Position numbers and translations under genes: made by a program | The notes under the pieces: generated by a model | Databases searched by the model: none | Told to the model about the DNA's origin: nothing | Seen by the model: only the letters and a program-made list of their open reading frames with translations | From: a virus | Lineage: Duplodnaviria > Caudoviricetes | Length of the DNA stretch: 37,322 bases | Direction: 5' to 3' (one strand) | IMG/VR virus record: IMGVR_UViG_3300047279_000044 | Span: 1 to 37,322 of that record | Shown: positions 19,518 to 37,322 of the stretch, one piece after another | Layout of the letters: each line of letters begins with the position of its first letter | Position numbering within the stretch: the stretch's first letter is position 1

Positions 19518-19712
19518 TTAATGTAGCTCGTTTGATTGTGGGTGAGCCGTATTACCCATAGCTAGATCTTCTAAGTATACCAATGTTGAAGCCAACACTG
19601 TATATACCTCTTCAAGATCTAGATCCTCTCCTATCTTAACCTTGAAAGTGTCTCCTTCAACGTTAAATAGTATCTGATTCTTCTCAATGTGTTTGTCGCC
19701 AGTTTGCACCAA
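19518..19712 (-). CDS. Hypothetical protein
   Basis: Fills the gap after the polymerase; start uncertain. Confidence 0.55.
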   Translation of the reverse strand: MVQTGDKHIEKNQILFNVEGDTFKVKIGEDLDLEEVYTVLASTLVYLEDLAMGNTAHPQSNELH

Positions 19713-21402
19713 TTTTATACTCCCCGTCTAGTGGACAACGAAGCTTAAAGTACTCTCCAGCTTCAACAATACTTTTCTTTGCAGCCTCACCTACTATTGT
19801 AGCATATTCCTTAGGAACTTCAAGCTGAAATTCATCATGAACATTAGCTACCAGCTTTACAGGCCACTTATTTGCCTTAGTCTTATCGTGAAATAATACT
19901 AAAGCTTTCTTCATAACTATCGACCCAGCCCCTTGAAGGAGCGAATTGAGGGCAGCGTGTTCTGACCTGACCCATATCTTACGACCATCAAGCCCCGGTA
20001 CAAAGCCCTTACCCGCATACTTGCTAACCGTACTTCGAAGACGCTGTAGGGCAGGTGTGTTCTTAAGAAAGGCATCGATGAGCTTCTGTCCCGCCTTAGC
20101 ATTACCACCGACAATGGAACCAATCTTAGCTGGCCCTGCACCGTATAGGAATGCGTAAATAAAGGTCTTAGCTTGATCCCTCGTTTCAAGGCCTGCAGCT
20201 TTCTGGTTCTGTGTGTGAACATCCGTCCCATCTTTAGAGGATCCTTCCGTGACTGTCTTAACATAAGTTTCATCCTTCATGTAATGTGCAAGCATACGAA
20301 GCTCAAGGCCACTAGCGTCACAACCAACCAATACGTTATCTGTTTCCACAGTCCAACATTCTCTACATTCTTTTCCATAAATACTACCTGAATTAGGAAT
20401 CTGTGCCATATTAGGACTACTGTGTGTCATCCTACCAGTTACAGCTCCATTAGTGATAACCTTACCATGCACTCTACCGTCCTTACCTACAGCTTCTAAC
20501 CAGCTTTCAATCTGAGCTACACGTTTCTGTAGCATCAGGTATTCAGCAATCATCTGAGCCTCAGGAATCTTAGTGACATTAGCCAATACTGTCTCATCGA
20601 CAATAGGTTGACCCTTCTCAGTAAATTCCTTTGGCTTCCATCCTAACTGCATCAACTTCTCTCCGATCTGTTTTCTACTTCCGGGATTGAAAGTATCAAC
20701 GGAATCTTGGATGGGTCTTCCATGGGTCTTGTGGAACCTTGGAGTGATGACTGGAGGCCACCTCTCTTGCATCTGTTCATATATTCCTGCCATCTTTCCT
20801 TTGATGTCAGCAAGTAAGCAGGTTGCGAAGGGTAAGTCAAGTTTGAAGCCATTACGTTCCTGTTCAGCTATGATAGAAGCTACCTTATGTTCAAGATCAA
20901 TGCTTTCTTGTGAAAAGCCCTTCTTAGTGAATTCATCATTAAGATGCTTATAAAGATTACAAGTGACCTCAACGTCCCTAATGCAATAATACTCCAGAAG
21001 AGCCATGTGAGGAACATTGAAGCACTCACCCTTGTACTCCTCTCGTCTTTCCATTAGCCATGTCCATACCCTTGCATAGTCAATCTTCTTCCTTCCGAGT
21101 CTCGTTCCCCAAGCGTCTAAGCTGTGCCCGTTCTCTATTGAGGGATCTAGCAGTCTTGACGCTATCAGTGTATCGTACACTTGGCTCAAGCGAATCTTCG
21201 TAGTCCATAGCCTGTTCAATATCGGAAAATCGAAGCCTATCCCGTTGTGGGCTACTATCAACGTAACGTCCCTTAAATACTCCACGAGGTTGTCTGCTGC
21301 TTTCCATACCTTAACTTCTCCAGTGTCAATGTCCTTAGTGACTACCATCCAGATCGTGTTGTGATCTAATGTTGTCTCGATGTCTAGCACAATACGTCTC
21401 AT
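19684..21402 (-). CDS. Family A DNA polymerase with 3'-5' exonuclease (T7 gp5-like)
   Basis: LDIET, HNGIGFD, YCIRDV (Exo I-III); DASGLELR (motif A), RDQAKTFIYAFLYG (motif B), NVHDE (motif C). Confidence 0.97.
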   Translation of the reverse strand: MRRIVLDIETTLDHNTIWMVVTKDIDTGEVKVWKAADNLVEYLRDVTLIVAHNGIGFDFPILNRLWTTKIRLSQVYDTLIASRLLDPSIENGHSLDAWGTRLGRKKIDYARVWTWLMERREEYKGECFNVPHMALLEYYCIRDVEVTCNLYKHLNDEFTKKGFSQESIDLEHKVASIIAEQERNGFKLDLPFATCLLADIKGKMAGIYEQMQERWPPVITPRFHKTHGRPIQDSVDTFNPGSRKQIGEKLMQLGWKPKEFTEKGQPIVDETVLANVTKIPEAQMIAEYLMLQKRVAQIESWLEAVGKDGRVHGKVITNGAVTGRMTHSSPNMAQIPNSGSIYGKECRECWTVETDNVLVGCDASGLELRMLAHYMKDETYVKTVTEGSSKDGTDVHTQNQKAAGLETRDQAKTFIYAFLYGAGPAKIGSIVGGNAKAGQKLIDAFLKNTPALQRLRSTVSKYAGKGFVPGLDGRKIWVRSEHAALNSLLQGAGSIVMKKALVLFHDKTKANKWPVKLVANVHDEFQLEVPKEYATIVGEAAKKSIVEAGEYFKLRCPLDGEYKIGANWRQTH

Positions 21403-21517
21403 ATTCAGCTTTCAAGTCTTCGTAGTGATGGATGAGTAATTGATACTTATCTTGAAGTTCATAGTACTTCGTTTCTAAGTCAAGCATTCTACCAGCTATC
21501 TTATCTAAGTCAATCAT
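21335..21517 (-). CDS. Hypothetical coiled-coil protein
   Basis: MLDLETKYYELQDKYQLL heptads; ATGA coupling to the upstream gene; 3' end overlaps the polymerase start. Confidence 0.65.
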   Translation of the reverse strand: MIDLDKIAGRMLDLETKYYELQDKYQLLIHHYEDLKAEYETYCARHRDNIRSQHDLDGSH

Positions 21518-21714
21518 TTCTTCATTCCTCGGATGGCGTCAGCCGCTTGTACTGAATAAAATGTTCCTTCACAAGCCTTTGCAGCTTCCTCAAGCACTTG
21601 GTTCCGCTGAGATACAGATACATACACCTCATCAAAGAAGTAAGGCTGTCCTGACTTCATAGCGTTCTCACGCTCAATACGATCGAACTCATCGTCTTCG
21701 TCTGTGTGAATCAT
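21514..21714 (-). CDS. Hypothetical protein
   Basis: DEDDEFDRIERE..RNQVLEEAAK; ATGA overlaps at both ends. Confidence 0.7.
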   Translation of the reverse strand: MIHTDEDDEFDRIERENAMKSGQPYFFDEVYVSVSQRNQVLEEAAKACEGTFYSVQAADAIRGMKK

Positions 21715-22001
21715 TTCTGTTTCCCTCTATAGTTCAACTCAGTACATTGATACACAGGAGCTTCCTTCCAATTAGGACGATAGGTATACTTAATAGCTAC
21801 TCCAGCAGATCCTGATACAGTCTCTAAAGTTTGATTCTTCTTAGCCCTATAAGCTCTCTTGTGTGCAGCTTTGATGTCTCTGTTCCTCTGAGCCCATTCA
21901 CGCTCCTTAATGCGTCTACGATTAGCTCTCTCTTCAATGACTTCTGGAGCAACTCCAATGTCCATCATCCTTTGCATCCACTTAGGTATCGTACCTGTCA
22001 T
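21711..22001 (-). CDS. Hypothetical basic protein
   Basis: Arg-rich helix REWAQRNRDIKAAHKRAYRAKK; RBS ggagg; ATGA overlaps. Confidence 0.65.
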   Translation of the reverse strand: MTGTIPKWMQRMMDIGVAPEVIEERANRRRIKEREWAQRNRDIKAAHKRAYRAKKNQTLETVSGSAGVAIKYTYRPNWKEAPVYQCTELNYRGKQK

Positions 22002-22144
22002 TTTGCAGCCTCCAGATATAGACCCACGTTACCTAGTGCATAACCTACAAAGGCTATACCTAAGCCAGTGTTACCTTTAACGAGTAGGTCAATAGCCACA
22101 ACAGTGTAGACTATTCCTACAATTGCAATTAAGATACTACTCAT
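21998..22144 (-). CDS. Small two-TM membrane protein, 48 aa (not in ORF track)
   Basis: MSSILIAIVGIVYTVVAIDLLVKGNTGLGIAFVGYALGNVGLYLEAAK; RBS aggag; overlaps both neighbours. Confidence 0.75.
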   Translation of the reverse strand: MSSILIAIVGIVYTVVAIDLLVKGNTGLGIAFVGYALGNVGLYLEAAK

Positions 22145-22298
22145 CTTTAGTCTCCTGTTCACGTTTATCTAACTCTTTATCAAATTCAAAGTCACGCTCT
22201 TTATCGCCCTTATCACGACCGAAGATCATATCCCATCGAGCCTCGTACTGTTCCTGAGCTACACTGAAGGGTCTAGGTGTACTTCCTTTGCCTGTCAT
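22137..22298 (-). CDS. Small hypothetical protein (GKGSTPRP..WDMIFG)
   Basis: Start refined to ATG 22298, overlapping the primase stop (ATGA), with a ggagga RBS. Confidence 0.7.
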   Translation of the reverse strand: MTGKGSTPRPFSVAQEQYEARWDMIFGRDKGDKERDFEFDKELDKREQETKDE

Positions 22299-23920
22299 AA
22301 CGTATCCTCCTGCATCTCCATCATACGTCCAGTTTCCATGTTGTACTTCAAAGTACATGCTGGGCCTGTATAACCATTGTAGCGATTCTTAGCCACTGCT
22401 ACCTTAGTCTGGTGTCTCTCATCATCATTCTCAGCCATGCTGTTACGCTCCAATGTAATCACAGCGTCTGACAGCTGAGCAATAGATCCTGATCCTCTGA
22501 GCTGAGACAGAGATACTGACTGTCCATCCTCATGACCTGCGTTACCTTGAGGCCTACGAAGATGGCTTACACAGATCAAAGTGATCTCCAACTCTTGAAC
22601 CAGTGTACGAAGCTTCGTCATCATGTTATCAATGGCCTTGCGTTCATCACCATTGTCCTGACCTGAGATAACAATACTAATGTGATCTAGAAAAATAACT
22701 TTGCAGTCACATGCTTTCGCCATATACCTAATACGGTTTGCAATATTATCCACGTCACTGCTGCCAAAATGGTCAAAAAGATAAACCCTATTAGTCCCAA
22801 GAGTAGCATCGAAAGCATCTTTAAGTTCCTGTTCATTTGTTGGTGTATCGGGTAAGTGCAACAGCTTATTAGCGTGCAAAGACATAATACTTCTAGCTGT
22901 CTTACGAGTTGACTCTTCGAGGAATAATCCTCCAATGTTCCACTTCGTAGTGTTCAGAATGTTAAACAATATTTCACGTAAGAATTGACTCTTACCTAGA
23001 CCTGAGCCTGCTGTCACAGTCACTAACTCCGAAGGTCTCATACCATAAAGAAGCTTATTCAAGCCCTTCCAAGGGTACATAGCCTCAGCCTTAGCCTCAG
23101 GTTTAATAACTTCCTCCCACAGTGATGCAGCATTGATGATCCCATCTGGAATGTAAACCTCAGCTCTCCACCACTCATTGACAAAGTCTTTAGTTCCTCC
23201 TGACATGAGATAATCACAAGCATCCTTACAGCCACTTAAATGCTTCATGATCTTAGCCTTCTGTCCGAACAGTTCAGCTACCTCTTTAGCGGCCTTCCTA
23301 CCCGGTTCATCAGCATCGAAGCAGATAACAATGCTATCGAATGTGTTTAACCACTCGTATTGAGCCTTGCAGTCCTTTAAAGCGGCCTGTGCACCATTTC
23401 TGACTGACACTACAGGGTAGAGGCTACCATTCATCTGAAAAGCTGCTAGAGCGTCAAGTTCTCCTTCAGTGATGGTGACTGCTTTGCCACCAGCGTGAAA
23501 GAGCTGCTGTCCGAAAAGCCTAGCATTCGTGAATGTTCCAAGAATGCTGAAAGTTTTGTCTGCCACTCGTCTAAGTTTTGCTGCGACAAGTGTTCCGGCA
23601 TCATCAGTGTAAGGATAAAAGTGCTGTCCATTTTCTTGAGTTACTCCATATTTCTCACAGGTTTGTTGGGTAATACCTCTATCAGGTATCGCTTTAATCT
23701 GGCCTTTGATGTCTAGCATCTGAGTTTTCCTCGGTTTAACTGCATCTTGCTTAACTGTGAAGTCATCATATTCATTATCATGGTGAGTTTCATGGCAGTT
23801 AAAACAATAGGTATGATTATCATCGTATAAAGCACCAGCATCTGAGCTACCACAGTACTCACAAGGTATGTGCTTTACAAACTTTGAATAAACTTTCTCT
23901 TTGCGGACGATGCTAAGCAT
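22295..23920 (-). CDS. DNA primase/helicase (T7 gp4-like)
   Basis: CEYCGSSD..YCFNC Zn finger, TEGELDAL and FDADEPG (TOPRIM), AGSGLGKS (Walker A), IFLDHIS, LRGSGSIAQLSD, KNRY.G.TG. Confidence 0.97.
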   Translation of the reverse strand: MLSIVRKEKVYSKFVKHIPCEYCGSSDAGALYDDNHTYCFNCHETHHDNEYDDFTVKQDAVKPRKTQMLDIKGQIKAIPDRGITQQTCEKYGVTQENGQHFYPYTDDAGTLVAAKLRRVADKTFSILGTFTNARLFGQQLFHAGGKAVTITEGELDALAAFQMNGSLYPVVSVRNGAQAALKDCKAQYEWLNTFDSIVICFDADEPGRKAAKEVAELFGQKAKIMKHLSGCKDACDYLMSGGTKDFVNEWWRAEVYIPDGIINAASLWEEVIKPEAKAEAMYPWKGLNKLLYGMRPSELVTVTAGSGLGKSQFLREILFNILNTTKWNIGGLFLEESTRKTARSIMSLHANKLLHLPDTPTNEQELKDAFDATLGTNRVYLFDHFGSSDVDNIANRIRYMAKACDCKVIFLDHISIVISGQDNGDERKAIDNMMTKLRTLVQELEITLICVSHLRRPQGNAGHEDGQSVSLSQLRGSGSIAQLSDAVITLERNSMAENDDERHQTKVAVAKNRYNGYTGPACTLKYNMETGRMMEMQEDTL

Positions 23921-27171: not shown

Positions 27172-27396
27172 TTAAACCCCTTTAGCATAGTTACGTAAAG
27201 ACTTAATATATCCAAGCTTGTCAGACTGAGCTTGAATGTTACCTTGCCAAGCCACCACTACAGTGCCTGACTTCTTAACACCTAAGAAGCGACCTTTATT
27301 AGACTTGTCGCCTGCGTAGACCATCTGACCGGCTTGAACGTGTTTGAGAAGGTCTACAGGCACAGACCAAATATTGAACATTGATTGATATTTCAT
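27172..27396 (-). CDS. Hypothetical early protein (start probably 27396)
   Basis: VQAGQMVYAGDKSNKGRFLGVK..VVAW; RBS aaggaa. Confidence 0.7.
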   Translation of the reverse strand: MKYQSMFNIWSVPVDLLKHVQAGQMVYAGDKSNKGRFLGVKKSGTVVVAWQGNIQAQSDKLGYIKSLRNYAKGV

Positions 27397-27409
27397 GACA
27401 TGTATTTCC

Positions 27410-27664
27410 TTATTCAAATGTTTCATCTACTGATATGTTAGCTTCACGTAAAGCTTTAACGACCGCCTTTGGAAGACACCAGTAACCATCATAATCTACA
27501 AGGTCAAGCCTGCCCCCATCTAACATCTCAAACCATAACCCGCCGCCCTCTGAGCCATCTTTGTGATCCCAAGCCCCATACAAAGCCGCTGGGTCAATCT
27601 TGACATCCCCGTACTCTGTAGAGTTGCCCCAAGGGTGTAGTGTGATTGTGAAATTGTAGGCCAT
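27410..27664 (-). CDS. Hypothetical early protein
   Basis: EGGGLWF..LVDYDGYWCLPKAV; RBS aaggag; TAATG overlap. Confidence 0.75.
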   Translation of the reverse strand: MAYNFTITLHPWGNSTEYGDVKIDPAALYGAWDHKDGSEGGGLWFEMLDGGRLDLVDYDGYWCLPKAVVKALREANISVDETFE

Positions 27665-27846
27665 TATGAATTCTCCTTTATGCCAAATTTGATGATGAAA
27701 TACTCAGGGAAGGTTTGCGAACGGTAGCAAATGCCATCCTTGATAAGGTCTAAAGCCGCATGCAGTTCTCTAGCACGGCTGTTCAGAACAGTGGCTGAAC
27801 CGTAGCGAGCGATCCAGTTCAGCAGGTCTCTAGTGGTGTTGTTCAA
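27664..27846 (-). CDS. First early gene, hypothetical (TTG start)
   Basis: RBS aggagag before TTG 27846. Confidence 0.65.
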   Translation of the reverse strand: MNNTTRDLLNWIARYGSATVLNSRARELHAALDLIKDGICYRSQTFPEYFIIKFGIKENS

Positions 27847-27895
27847 GTGTCTCTCCTAGTGGTTGACTGGTTGGCTCCTTGCCTTCCATGACTCT

Positions 27896-27904
27896 ATTAT
27901 GCCA
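27896..27904 (-). promoter_or_regulatory. Probable early promoter (extended -10 TGGCATAAT)
   Basis: About 50 bp upstream of the first early gene; no good -35 element. Confidence 0.4.
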
Positions 27905-28062
27905 TCATGAACCCTGCTGACTGTCACATTGGCGACAAACTACCAATTATTTAACAACTTTAAACCCTAATAGGGTAAACCCTTAGACTACCTGAGACAG
28001 AATCGATTAGAGGCCCTCAGAGGCGTTTGAGGGTGTAGTAGTACCTTACCCCTTGCCAAATG

Positions 28063-28181
28063 TTATCCACACCAGCTTTAGTACTTATCCACAATCTTAA
28101 CTCTTATATAAGACTTTGCCTGTTAATAACTTATACCCCCGACAGTAGCTTATCCACAGCCTGTTGATAACTTGTGCATAA
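28063..28181. promoter_or_regulatory. Cluster of DnaA boxes
   Basis: TTATCCACA at 28063, 28085 and 28150 (+); TTATGCACA at 28173-28181 (-); TTATCAACA at 28162-28170 (-); degenerate TTATTAACA at 28121-28129 (-). Confidence 0.85.
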
Positions 28182-28186
28182 CTATT

Positions 28187-28279
28187 AACCTTGTACTTTG
28201 TAGGGTCTTTAGTGTATAACCTTAGTATTTCAAGGGTCTTTATAGAATAGCCTTAGTACTTCAGAGGGTACTACAAAGC
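28187..28279 (+). repeat. Three degenerate 31-bp direct repeats
   Basis: aaccttgtactttgtagggtctttagtgtat / aaccttagtatttcaagggtctttatagaat / agccttagtacttcagagggtactacaaagc starting at 28187, 28218 and 28249. Confidence 0.75.
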
Positions 28280-28297
28280 CCCTCACATTGCTAGATC

Positions 28298-28320
28298 TAA
28301 ATAGGAATCATTCTCATTTA
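28298..28320. promoter_or_regulatory. Fur-box-like palindrome
   Basis: TAAATAGGAATCATTCTCATTTA; the - strand reads AATGAGAATGATTCCTATT. Confidence 0.55.
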
Positions 28321-28404
28321 GACTACTCAGTCTACTTAGTGACTACTCAGTACAGATTGTGACTACAGAGTCCACTTAGTGACTGCTTTGACTATAAAGT
28401 GACT
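28321..28404 (+). repeat. 20-bp-period degenerate tandem array (about 4.2 units) ending at a G6 run
   Basis: GACT recurs at 28321, 28341, 28361, 28381 and 28401: gactactcagtctacttagt / gactactcagtacagattgt / gactacagagtccacttagt / gactgctttgactataaagt. Confidence 0.8.
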
Positions 28405-28505
28405 GGGGGGTATGCCTGCTTAGCTGTGAATACTATTGTGGGAGCCTACAAAGTACACAAAAAAGTAAAACTAAAGAGATTAATTAGGGACAGATCAAAT
28501 AGACA

Positions 28506-28518
28506 TAAGTAGTTGATC
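28506..28518 (-). promoter_or_regulatory. IHF-like site
   Basis: - strand GATCAACTACTTA versus consensus WATCAANNNNTTR (one mismatch). Confidence 0.4.
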
Positions 28519-28644
28519 TACAAAGTAAAACTAACAAGAACTACAAAGTACCTTAAATGCAGTGTAACGATAGTATGAATGCTATGTAAGAATTAGAGTG
28601 TAGACTCTAAAGTGAAGATAAAGTAAGAATAAATAAGAAAAGAC

Positions 28645-28673
28645 TTGACAAATAGACAAACATAGTGTATAAT
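28645..28673 (+). promoter_or_regulatory. Perfect-consensus sigma70 promoter upstream of the terminase operon
   Basis: TTGACA (28645-28650), 17 bp, TATAAT (28668-28673), with an A-rich UP-like tract upstream. Confidence 0.9.
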
Positions 28674-28956
28674 ATTCTACATAGGATATAATTGTGTTTA
28701 CTAAGAAGCCTGACCCCACTTCTTAGGTTAACTTCTAAGGCTAATCCGTACACCCTAGTAGGGGAACATAGAAGTTAAATACACTATTAAAGATAATTAT
28801 TATAAGTTATTACTGTTAATGTTACTTATAAAGTAATTAATATTAATAATACTTATATAAGTACTTATAATATTTATGTCTATGTACTGTTAATGTTAAT
28901 GTCTTAGTACTCTATAGTACTATATGTTAAAGTCTCCCCTATAGAGGATAAAGACG

Positions 28957-29343
28957 ATGGAAGTAAAAGATGATGTCTCAAGGATTGTGTCTCCTAAACT
29001 CCGTGGTAAGGGCAGACCTCCAAAGAGTGATCTACAAGCTGTTAAGAATAGAACTAAGAATAAGGTAGGTAGACCTGTAGGTGATGCAGGAAGGCTTCAA
29101 GAGTTTAAGGAGAGGTTATTAGCTACAGGCGGTACTAGGATCCTCGATAAGATGATTCAGATAGCCTTAGATGATGAACACCCCGGACAGATGGCAGCTA
29201 TCAAGTTAGCTATGGATAGGATCTTACCAGCATCAGTGTTTGATACAGCTAAGAGTGGTGGTAGTATGCCTCAGATCAGTATTAACATTAGTGGACTTAA
29301 TAGTCCTATGGTTAGTACAAATGATGATGTTATTGACGTATGA
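28957..29343 (+). CDS. terS: Terminase small subunit
   Basis: KGRPPK / VGRPVG motifs, helical core AAIKLAMDRILP, QISINISG tail; overlaps the TerL start. Confidence 0.75.
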   Translation: MEVKDDVSRIVSPKLRGKGRPPKSDLQAVKNRTKNKVGRPVGDAGRLQEFKERLLATGGTRILDKMIQIALDDEHPGQMAAIKLAMDRILPASVFDTAKSGGSMPQISINISGLNSPMVSTNDDVIDV

Positions 29344-30596
29344 CAGAACTTAACTTTCAGTTACTTAAATGGCAACAAGAAGTCTTTAAAAACACACATC
29401 GCTTTAAGGTAGTTGCAGCTGGTCGTCGATGTGGTAAGTCTAGGTTATCGGCAGTGTCTTTGCTTATTGAAGCACTTAACTGCCCTGAAGGTTCGGCTGT
29501 AATGTATATTGCCCCTACTCTGGGACAAGCCCGGTCGATTCTATGGGATCTATTACATGACATTGGAAGACCTGTAATTAAGTCTAGTCACGTTAACAAC
29601 TTGGAAATAACACTTGTTAATGGTCGTAAGATTCTAGTAAGAGGAGCTGATAACCCTGATTCTTTGCGTGGTGTCTCGCTAACTTATGTGGTTCTTGATG
29701 AGTGTGCGTTTATTAAGCAGGACATCTGGGAAAAGGTTATACGAGCATCGCTATCGGACAAAAAAGGTAGGGCTTTATTTATTAGCACCCCGTCTGGTAG
29801 AAATTGGTTTTATGACATCTTTAACCTTGGTAAAGAGCAGGATGAAGAGTGGAAGTCATGGCACTTCACAACACAGGATAACGAGACTATTGATCCTAAA
29901 GAGATTGAGGCTGCAAAGCGTACATTGAGTTCCTTTGCATTCAAGCAGGAATACCTGTCTAGCTTTGATACCTCAGGTGCTGATGTCTTTAAAGAGGACT
30001 GGTTTAAACTATCTGAAGAACCTCAACACGGTAGCTACATTGTAGCCATCGACTTAGCAGGGTTTGAGGAGGTAGGTAAGAATGCTGGGGCATCTAAGAA
30101 GAGATTGGATGAGACAGCTATTGCAGTTGTTAAGCTAAAGGACAATGGTGATTGGTGGGTAGATAAGATACAGCACGGTAGGTGGGACATTAGAGAGACT
30201 GCTGTAAATATCCTGAAGATCATTAGAGACTACCAACCAACTGCAGTAGGGATTGAGAAAGGTGCATTGAAGAATGCAGTTCTACCGTACCTGACTGACT
30301 TGATGAGAAAGAATAATATCTACTCACACATTCAGGACTTAACTCATGGTAACAAGAAGAAAGTAGATAGAGTTGTCTGGAGCTTACAAGGTCGTATGGA
30401 ACATGGAAGGATCTCCTTCAATGAGTCAGAGGATTGGAGTGAGTTTAAGGATCAACTAATTATGTTTCCCACAGCTGGCGTACATGATGACTTAGTAGAT
30501 GCTCTAAGTTACATTGACCAACTAGCTATAGCTTCCTATAACAGTGATTATGAAGAGGAAGAGTGGGATGTTTATGACAAGATAGCAGGATATTAA
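29340..30596 (+). CDS. terL: Terminase large subunit
   Basis: AGRRCGKS (Walker A), VVLDE (Walker B), ISTP, IDLAG and HDDLVDAL nuclease motifs. Confidence 0.97.
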   Translation: MTELNFQLLKWQQEVFKNTHRFKVVAAGRRCGKSRLSAVSLLIEALNCPEGSAVMYIAPTLGQARSILWDLLHDIGRPVIKSSHVNNLEITLVNGRKILVRGADNPDSLRGVSLTYVVLDECAFIKQDIWEKVIRASLSDKKGRALFISTPSGRNWFYDIFNLGKEQDEEWKSWHFTTQDNETIDPKEIEAAKRTLSSFAFKQEYLSSFDTSGADVFKEDWFKLSEEPQHGSYIVAIDLAGFEEVGKNAGASKKRLDETAIAVVKLKDNGDWWVDKIQHGRWDIRETAVNILKIIRDYQPTAVGIEKGALKNAVLPYLTDLMRKNNIYSHIQDLTHGNKKKVDRVVWSLQGRMEHGRISFNESEDWSEFKDQLIMFPTAGVHDDLVDALSYIDQLAIASYNSDYEEEEWDVYDKIAGY

Positions 30597-36014: not shown

Positions 36015-37322
36015 ATGGCTATTTTTAATAGAAATAACATGCTAAGCGACTTCGCCTTTGAAGACATGGGCGGTGATAGCTTATTTGATACTGGCTCATT
36101 CAATCTTCAAGATTTATTAAATTATTCATCAATTCCTGAGCCTTCCTTTGTAGCTCCTACGCCAGCTCCTGTGTATACCCCTGCTCCAGTATTTACACCT
36201 GAGCCTGTGTATACACCCCCAGCTTTTGTATCACAACCTACAGTCGATTACTTTGCACAGCAGTTTGCTCCTGAAATGTTTACTCAAGCACCTGCACCTG
36301 TGTATCAACCAACGTTTACACCTGAGCCTGTAGCAGCTCCTGCTTTACCTCCACAAATGATGGAGTCATTGTTCATGGGACAACCTGTAGGGGCTGTTAT
36401 GCCTACACCTGAGTTTGTTCCTGAAGCTCCTATGGCTCCTATGGCAGCTCCTGTACAACAACAACAAGAACAACCTAAAGTAGAGAACAAACAAGCTGTT
36501 ATTGATAGCCTTACCAAGCAGATCCTAGGCTCTAGTGACTCTTCTAAGTGGCAAGGTGGTGTAGGTGCTGAACAAGCCGCTAAAGACATGGCTAAGATCA
36601 TGGCTGGCATTGGCATCACAGACATTAGCCAATTTGGTAAGGTTACTCAAACTGGCTTGCAAGAGGATGTAAGACCTGATGGTCGTGGTGGCTATGTTAA
36701 CCTTAAAGGACAGCCTGTAGATCCTGCTGGTGTTACTCCTTTGGAGATGGATGGCAACATTGTCGGCTACTCCTCTCCTACTGGCACACAAGAGACTTAT
36801 GGTAACAAAGCAACAGGACAGTCTGTTCCTTTGACATACAGTGAGAGACAGACTGGTAATGCCTTTGGTGGTACTTTTGAAGGTAAGGGCAATACAGGCT
36901 ACAGAGTTGATTTTGATGCTTCTGGTAAGCCAGTGTTCTATACGACTGGTGCATCAAGCTCAGACGCTGCCAGTGCTACTCCATTCATTCAGATGGCTTT
37001 GTTAGCTACTGGTGCAGGTGGCTTGTTAGGTAATGCTCTATTAGGGTCAGGTGCTTCACAAGTAGCTGCTAATGCTCTTGGTGGTGCTATCCTTGGTGGT
37101 GGTACTGCAGCTATTACAGGTGCTGACATTGTTAAGGGAGCATTGATGGGAGGTGCTGGAGGTGCTTTGTCAGGTTACTTAGCTCCTGAGTTACCTCTGG
37201 ATGTTGCAGGTACTCCTACAGTAGATCCTGAAGCATTCATGACTCCTGATGTTTCATACTTCGAAGCTCCCCCAACTAACACACTATTCCCACCTATTGA
37301 AGCTCCTCCAATAGTTCCTGAG
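36015..37322 (+). CDS. N-terminal part of the 817-aa Pro-rich protein (continues through the junction to 1273)
   Basis: Hand translation from ATG 36015 (MAIFNRNNMLSDF..) has no stop before the window end; absent from the ORF track because it wraps. Confidence 0.85.
   Translation, partial: MAIFNRNNMLSDFAFEDMGGDSLFDTGSFNLQDLLNYSSIPEPSFVAPTPAPVYTPAPVFTPEPVYTPPAFVSQPTVDYFAQQFAPEMFTQAPAPVYQPTFTPEPVAAPALPPQMMESLFMGQPVGAVMPTPEFVPEAPMAPMAAPVQQQQEQPKVENKQAVIDSLTKQILGSSDSSKWQGGVGAEQAAKDMAKIMAGIGITDISQFGKVTQTGLQEDVRPDGRGGYVNLKGQPVDPAGVTPLEMDGNIVGYSSPTGTQETYGNKATGQSVPLTYSERQTGNAFGGTFEGKGNTGYRVDFDASGKPVFYTTGASSSDAASATPFIQMALLATGAGGLLGNALLGSGASQVAANALGGAILGGGTAAITGADIVKGALMGGAGGALSGYLAPELPLDVAGTPTVDPEAFMTPDVSYFEAPPTNTLFPPIEAPPIVPE
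37196..37322. repeat. Terminal overlap, identical to 1-127
   Basis: Direct sequence identity. Confidence 0.95.

Follow-up and report, generated by a model that had tools for sequence, protein, structure and literature searches.

A patchily distributed block of DnaA boxes and an SdhR-type operator in the early/late gap of a 37-kb phage: a possible decoy for host regulators

The DnaA-box cluster and its setting

The window analyzed here, a stretch of 37,322 nucleotides, is a circular assembly of a 37-kb freshwater phage with a terminal overlap of 127 bp, and the gap between its early and late genes holds six DnaA-box-like 9-mers packed in 119 bp (28063..28181). About half of the relatives lack this block and many others carry it inverted, which points to an optional decoy and not to a replication origin. 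Our best reading, held with less than even confidence, is a non-coding decoy that would titrate DnaA and metabolic repressors as phage genome copies rise.

Three boxes with the perfect consensus TTATCCACA lie on the plus strand at 28063..28071, 28085..28093 (22 bp past the first) and 28150..28158. The third opens a triple of one box opposed to two (> < <, spacing 12/11 bp), whose other members, on the minus strand, are TTATCAACA with 1 mismatch (28162..28170) and TTATGCACA, which fits TTWTNCACA (28173..28181). A degenerate minus-strand box with 2 mismatches (TTATTAACA; 28121..28129) faces the first pair across an SdhR-type site, and aligned relatives have a closer consensus match at this position. 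Every box was found where the first-pass annotation had placed it, and the spacings given there, 22 bp (28063/28085) and 11 bp (28162/28173), are correct. Five boxes at ≤1 mismatch, three of them perfect, were observed within 120 bp; 400 first-order Markov simulations yielded at most 3 boxes (≤1 mismatch) and 1 perfect box per 120 bp, and 0/400 reached the observed values. The scan for TTWTNCACA against background that had been proposed gave a divided answer: the clustering exceeds the simulations, but the total count is ordinary, with 5 genome-wide matches against 4.2 expected and, for boxes at one mismatch, 11 against 9.85 expected, neither above chance. The genome-wide box total, not above shuffles, was dropped as evidence. 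No perfect box was found elsewhere in the window, in line with the claim that it holds no other such cluster. The cluster is real and apparently under selection, and the boxes in 28063..28181, whose position is conserved among relatives, are very likely real DnaA sites.

The minus strand encodes Pol A (19684-21402) and a T7-type primase-helicase (22295-23920), both within 19684..23920, which bears out the statement that the phage brings its own replisome; it also encodes an exonuclease, an endonuclease and a class II ribonucleotide reductase. Terminase, portal, capsid, tail and lysis genes are encoded on the plus strand. No RNA polymerase gene was found among 63 ORFs scanned in the window, and no close cultured relative by TerL, portal or primase-helicase. 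The two gene blocks diverge at the gap 27847-28956, in which we found no credible ORF and no Rfam match, so the non-coding setting first described stands. On the early side, the gap is bordered by the first early ORF (27664..27846, minus strand; 60 aa, without a family hit), and on the late side by a probable terminase small subunit (28957-29343, also without a family hit), which precedes the terminase large subunit (29340..30596, plus strand). Alignment with relatives predicts a first early promoter on the minus strand (27896..27937), with its -10 hexamer at 27896-27901 and a 16-bp palindrome (27922-27937) in place of the -35 box, and a perfect sigma-70 promoter on the plus strand (28645..28673) faces the terminase genes. 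The gap between these two divergent promoters is the only stretch predicted to be untranscribed. Elsewhere, a long Pro/Glu-rich repeat protein without a family hit spans the assembly join (36015-37322 and 1-1273).

An optional block and its SdhR-type partner

Relatives were taken from a pool of 80 TerL-anchored loci, 119 loci found through a conserved G-run motif and the window; 105 pooled loci had the G-run with a left flank of 600 bp, and dereplication reduced these to 95, loci without the G-run or with a shorter flank being excluded. Perfect boxes lie left of the G-run in 51/95 relatives (132 boxes in total), and the 600 bp to its right hold 0 perfect boxes in the same 95. Other phage DNA contained 1 perfect box in 516 kb against ~5 expected. 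A consensus box is lacking in 41/95 relatives, 39 of which hold at least one other operator-like motif. On the TerL tree (FastTree, 82 rows; 13/95 left out for short TerL) the boxes were gained or lost no fewer than 24 times, and their presence can differ even between rows whose aligned TerL is identical. The alignment of relatives that had been recommended thus shows a slot conserved in position but boxes lacking in those 41 genomes and layouts that vary, with 23 orientation patterns among box arrays. Common box spacings include 19, 35, 11, 22 and 30-32; with 19 and 35 also common, the helical phasing noted for the window is not a family-wide trait. In 48/49 cases, the distance between the called first start codon and the box nearest to it is 95-365 bp.

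The block adds ~140 bp to the leader, which measures 531 bp with at least two boxes and 390 bp without boxes (43 vs 37 genomes, p=2e-7), while other sites number 1.84 per box-free genome and 1.93 per genome with boxes (p=0.96). Because box-bearing leaders are longer and box-free leaders hold no extra other sites, the DnaA block is an optional insert in the leader and not a substitute. Patchy presence and fast exchange would also fit a near-neutral passenger, acquired once and recombined among the phages of one host without benefit, as would the finding that no early gene family tracks the block (best p=0.04 uncorrected, 25 families). However, in aligned relatives box positions are held fixed while spacers diverge, consensus boxes are kept in all of the many layouts, and host genomes offer no such tandem pair to copy (tandem perfect DnaA-box pair in 0/5), and we regard a passenger as the least probable of the explanations weighed here.

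Between the second and third box lies a feature overlooked in the first-pass annotation, the palindrome TCTTATATAAGA (28101..28114), which forms the core of an SdhR-type operator. It matches the 12-bp core of the operator palindrome published for SdhR (PMC4494728), the outer arms being absent in the window. The 20-nt form of this motif occurs in ~2300 stretches of the genome collection, and nearly all matches listed are betaproteobacterial. At 25 host loci hand-picked from 120 listed matches, the motif lies beside aceA, mdh, icd, acnA, acs or a GntR/HutC regulator in 23, and copies stand ahead of each of these genes. By its sequence, the site paired with the boxes is an operator for a GntR-family protein that regulates central metabolism; SdhR itself functions as a repressor. 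Among phage SdhR sites, 28/34 accompany DnaA boxes, and 27 of these 28 lie at 16-20 bp from a box. Under phylogenetic control the association is weaker (median p=0.07), and the DnaA-SdhR link may reflect one transferred block.

The box-box-SdhR pattern was found in 56 viral contigs, from the window's group and from a 70-83 kb group, and the same DnaA-DnaA-SdhR core recurs in two unrelated cultured phages, Limnohabitans DC31 and Curvibacter P26059A, in both upstream of small genes. What the window shares with them is the pair 28063/28085 plus the SdhR site. Relative to the G-run, 16/29 loci carry the core back to front (no G-run was seen in 27/56), and in P26059A it is reversed relative to the early genes. 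The main text of the DC31 paper (PMC12195039) mentions neither DnaA nor termini. From the core shared with DC31 and P26059A and from the host SdhR contexts we infer a Comamonadaceae-type host. The five comparison genomes, selected via the SdhR motif itself, contain 10-18 perfect boxes per genome together with 3 perfect SdhR cores.

Replication origin, early promoter, genome end or decoy

The first-pass annotation labelled the cluster oriC-like and offered a host-primed origin as one of three options. The basal unwinding system of bacterial oriC consists of DnaA boxes, trios and an adjacent AT-rich tract in a fixed layout; the window resembles it in having several DnaA boxes within ~120 bp, but differs in having no trios, adjacent AT-rich tract or fixed layout. 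A DnaA-assisted origin, at which DnaA would open the cluster DNA for the first rounds of phage replication, would accord with multiple high-affinity boxes, some of them head-to-tail at 11 and 22 bp, with the absence, among the ORFs scanned, of a phage RNA polymerase that could open an origin, and with a cumulative GC-skew minimum at 28348. The skew minimum, however, tracks the strand switch and lies 15 kb from the cassette in DC31, and GC skew was dropped as origin evidence on these grounds. Under a strict pattern that weak trios could escape, DnaA-trios stand behind a box in 0/57 arrays, whereas a host oriC-like control was positive; this control (L397, G004:C4:18000-22000), located before minC and probably a Comamonadaceae oriC, has several DnaA boxes with trios and an AT-rich run behind them. 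The flanks of the cluster have 44% and 33% GC with no adjoining AT-rich element, and the block is invertible. With trios in 0/57 arrays, no adjacent AT-rich tract and 41/95 relatives box-free, we find no support for the oriC-like label or the host-primed option, and consider an origin at the boxes very unlikely.

An AT-rich tract of 17% GC (28780..28930) does exist in the window, apart from the boxes and ~600 bp across a predicted terminal repeat, so that in a linear genome it would sit at the opposite end. In 67/86 relatives the 100 bp richest in A and T begin 200-499 bp to the right of the G-run, and the tract at 28780..28930 may be a better origin candidate than the boxes. The region 28645-28930 combines the sigma-70 promoter, a short hairpin and the 17% GC tract, conserved in position, and resembles a transcription-opened origin. 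In two Comamonadaceae genomes (L394 and L398), repeated DnaA boxes and IHF-like sites were seen upstream of priA.

Motif identities were checked for DnaA, SdhR and NtrC only, the last by host context; the names Fur, TetR, NrdR, parS, HexR, LexA, IHF, OmpR and sigma-54 are labels that we presume to be appropriate. Aligned relatives share the window's -10 and leader yet swap the upstream element. Across the family the early promoters vary: a sigma-54-type element (sense) occupies the early slot in 28/95, an OmpR-type repeat in 16/95, and other elements are found elsewhere. NtrC-type palindromes occur in 22/28 relatives with the sigma-54-type element vs 15/67 others (independent pairs: median p=0.03, range 0.03-0.22) and lie 90-200 bp upstream of it, and NtrC-like palindromes precede host glnA and amtB (2/5 inspected sites). 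Given these varied activator-type promoters in the gap, the phages probably wire early transcription to host activators. The promoter palindrome of the window (27922-27937) sits at an activator-like position; a search of 5 host genomes found neither its pattern nor the OmpR-type repeat (0/5 each). A further palindrome in the gap, TAGGGTAAACCCT (27971..27983), is a probable host regulator site with copies in Comamonadaceae, occurring in 3/5 genomes, where 8/9 inspected copies lie 30-150 bp ahead of an ORF. In the sigma-54-type relatives, which include L001, L027, L042, L400-L404, L411, L425 and L445, two NtrC-type palindromes spaced by ~30 bp lie at enhancer distance from a -24/-12 element, and promoters of this kind hardly ever occur together with those of the OmpR or TAGGGTAAACCCT type.

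Such promoters lend some plausibility to another of the original options, a growth-state sensor, in which DnaA and SdhR bound upstream would tune the first early promoter to host growth state, as one kind of lytic deferment. One sub-group has its boxes 37-110 bp upstream of the sigma-54 element, between that element and the NtrC-type sites, and the binding of CtrA to phage promoters has been shown experimentally (PMC9437464). The block, however, is independent of promoter type, boxes being equally frequent with all types (p=0.26; independent pairs p=1). Furthermore, their distance to the promoter varies and their orientation goes either way, in the window ~160 bp separate the predicted -10 hexamer from the nearest box upstream, and none of the window's leftward sigma-70 matches falls on a box. 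Examined as for a host-regulated promoter, box position proved fixed within sub-groups and variable across the family. Plausible host-activated promoters thus remain of the sensor option, while the boxes do not follow them, and we consider gating of the promoter by DnaA and SdhR unlikely.

To the right of the boxes, a conserved motif A (28271..28286, plus strand) and the conserved G-run (28405..28410, plus strand) are the predicted inner and outer boundaries of a terminal repeat at the early genome end. Motif A, whose pattern was constructed after the sequences had been seen, is present in 42/95 relatives, with 0 occurrences right of the G-run. Contig starts fall within 300 bp left of the G-run in 15/26 cases, and 5/17 distinct contigs (+2 by eye) start 1-20 bp before motif A, although strain variation also breaks assemblies at the gap. 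In contigs over the gap no genome end was seen, and one unitig spans 27369-29070. From the contig starts and by analogy with phage LUZ24, which has a 184-bp terminal repeat in the same slot and a record beginning with a C-run, motif A to G-run is predicted to be a terminal repeat of 100-250 bp, ~150 bp in the window (~28260-28410), and the box block would lie between the first early promoter and this repeat. Sites are zoned accordingly in the 42 genomes with motif A: Fur-like (16), TetR-like (30) and NrdR-like (9) sites lie inside the predicted repeat vs 0 outside, whereas DnaA boxes (58 vs 3), SdhR (22 vs 0), parS-like (6 vs 0) and TAGGGTAAACCCT (15 vs 0) sites lie inward of it vs inside. The box block is one element in a wider mosaic of sites resembling host operators, which the first-pass annotation also overlooked. 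In the window the predicted repeat contains a Fur-box-like palindrome (28300..28318), with a related pattern in 1/5 host genomes, and three imperfect repeats of 20-bp period (28316..28395, plus strand); TetR-like AGTGAGYRCTYACT was found in 0/5 host genomes. Two to three imperfect 31-bp direct repeats (28186-28260) separate the boxes from motif A. An IHF-like site is present at 28506-28517 in the window, 80-160 bp right of the G-run in 33/95 relatives and left of it in 14/95, and a dif-arm-like 10-mer (half site), absent from the window's gap, lies right of the G-run in 25/95.

This position suggests that host DnaA might bind the first-entering 230-350 bp and anchor, pace or shield the DNA until the host's RNA polymerase captures the first promoter. 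The boxes lie at a median of 260 bp from the G-run, on the early side only, and where motif A is present (42 genomes) 58/61 perfect boxes are just inward of the predicted repeat; a membrane-DnaA stop has been proposed for T5 (bioRxiv 10.1101/866236). parS-like sites occur in the same zone in 10/95 relatives, Pseudomonas phage REC (L520 1-700) has a parS-like palindrome in its first 450 bp, and triple-box clusters are near TerL in 18/42 loci. On the other hand, a coat made of any binder predicts compensation in box-free genomes, and none was found, which weakened our early reading that any host protein coating the end would suffice. Boxes outside the predicted repeat would be carried by a single end, and with no gene before the boxes a stop-and-release of the T5 type cannot apply. 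Moreover, the box pair of phage LIT1 adjoins the right repeat, LUZ24 has an equal layout and zero perfect boxes, and the first-entering end is itself assumed from T7. We therefore consider docking at the genome end somewhat unlikely, though a shade less so than promoter gating.

Of the three options first offered, the DnaA sponge fits best: the block is optional, tolerates either orientation and loose distances, is not compensated for when absent, has boxes of consensus quality, and faces few host sites. In the decoy model, host DnaA and SdhR would be captured by an optional, invertible 119-bp block in the early/late gap, whose consensus sites would come to outnumber those of the host once phage genome copies build up. 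With DnaA titrated, fewer rounds of host replication would start, and with SdhR titrated, TCA and glyoxylate genes would be derepressed. In favor of this model, 132 boxes in one slot are position-specific and recurrent and behave as an add-on, the SdhR operator is the partner site in 28/34 genomes, host site numbers are low, and the block lies in the only stretch predicted to escape transcription. In E. coli, extra plasmid-borne copies of datA impair initiation (PMC5742627). A decoy, however, needs no fixed place, yet in many phage types box clusters are found close to terminase genes, and in T5 and LIT1 close to mapped ends. One incoming genome brings only 3 perfect boxes, so that titration would act only once replication has begun. 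T7 breaks down host DNA with nucleases whose families, an endonuclease and an exonuclease, are also encoded by this phage, and with such nucleases a late derepression of host genes could be pointless. Decoy, docking and gating are not mutually exclusive.

It is possible, though doubtful, that lytic phages of freshwater Betaproteobacteria more generally trade host-operator cassettes as copy-driven decoys, a kind of 'auxiliary metabolic DNA'. Such trade would include DnaA, SdhR, Fur-, NrdR-, HexR-, LexA- and parS-like sites, in or inward of the terminal repeat, and the cassettes would block host re-initiation and unlock carbon and nucleotide pathways without any phage protein. If the decoy model is true, host takeover by non-coding DNA forms a layer invisible to gene-centred phage annotation, and host-operator motifs of this sort also aid host prediction.

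Comparison with known systems

Clusters of this general kind are not confined to the window's family. The triple-box pattern occurs in ~580 IMG/VR stretches, with 67/78 inspected non-coding and 4 with an SdhR site; TerL (five PHROG families) lies within 4 kb of 18/42 triple-box loci, each tested through one or two large ORFs. Isolates with box pairs or clusters are the T5-likes, LIT1 (beside the right repeat) and Lactococcus phage 949, in which seven perfect DnaA boxes (L524 2950-3450) fall within 1 kb of DNA that holds no genes. No end cluster of perfect boxes was found in PaP1 (first 32 kb) or REC (first 31 kb). LUZ24 resembles the window in having no annotated RNA polymerase, in its converging gene blocks and similar late promoter, and in a terminal repeat placed between early promoters and terminase, but has zero perfect DnaA boxes.

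Even for T5, whose box region is essential and hard to mutate, DnaA boxes close to the end of a phage genome have only a proposed function. The window's block is naturally optional, so that sister phages with and without it exist; with these sisters and the core in two cultured phages, whose lake-dwelling hosts are harmless, the decoy, docking and gating models are directly testable. For the T5 boxes, located in the terminal repeat at the injection stop signal, a function is proposed but not shown in the portions of the account drawn on here (Davison, bioRxiv 10.1101/866236). Like the window, T5 is a lytic phage with its own replication genes, and in those portions its consensus and near-consensus boxes, of the same variants, are clustered in non-coding DNA near a genome end. 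T5 boxes, however, form co-oriented pairs 12 bp apart at 6.1 and 9.4-9.5 kb in a 10-kb repeat, sit behind the pre-early genes and are present in all T5-likes, whereas in the window the boxes come before any gene, stand on both sides of an SdhR-type site and form a block that is optional and can be inverted. Measured against the T5 stop signal, the window has no gene between its predicted end and the boxes, and its predicted repeat is ~150 bp.

E. coli datA is likewise a non-origin box cluster, described as lowering DnaA activity through its dosage (PMC5742627), and in both cases co-oriented boxes flank the site of another protein, 65 bp apart in the window and 67 bp in datA. The middle site of datA, however, is for IHF and that of the window SdhR-type (no IHF consensus was seen between the window's co-oriented boxes), the 65-bp spacing is not kept in DC31, and the block is phage-borne and optional. 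The triple 28150/28162/28173 resembles the cores of E. coli DARS1 and DARS2, described as one box opposed to two (PMC5742627, PMC6868365), but is spaced at 12/11 bp and not at the 14/12 bp of both DARS cores; the window's triple recurs in only 9/95 relatives, and none of the 95 has a 14/12 bp triple.

The CtrA arrays described in lytic phages of alphaproteobacteria, to which 'lytic deferment' has been ascribed, also place sites of a host regulator in terminal or gap regions (PMC9437464). That system, as described, uses one regulator acting at promoters, whereas the window's family carries a swappable mix of sites; for DnaA sites, the excerpted text of the study reports no positional bias in its phages (PMC9437464). 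Arrays of host-protein sites near phage ends are therefore already known, with published precedents in the T5 boxes and the CtrA arrays.
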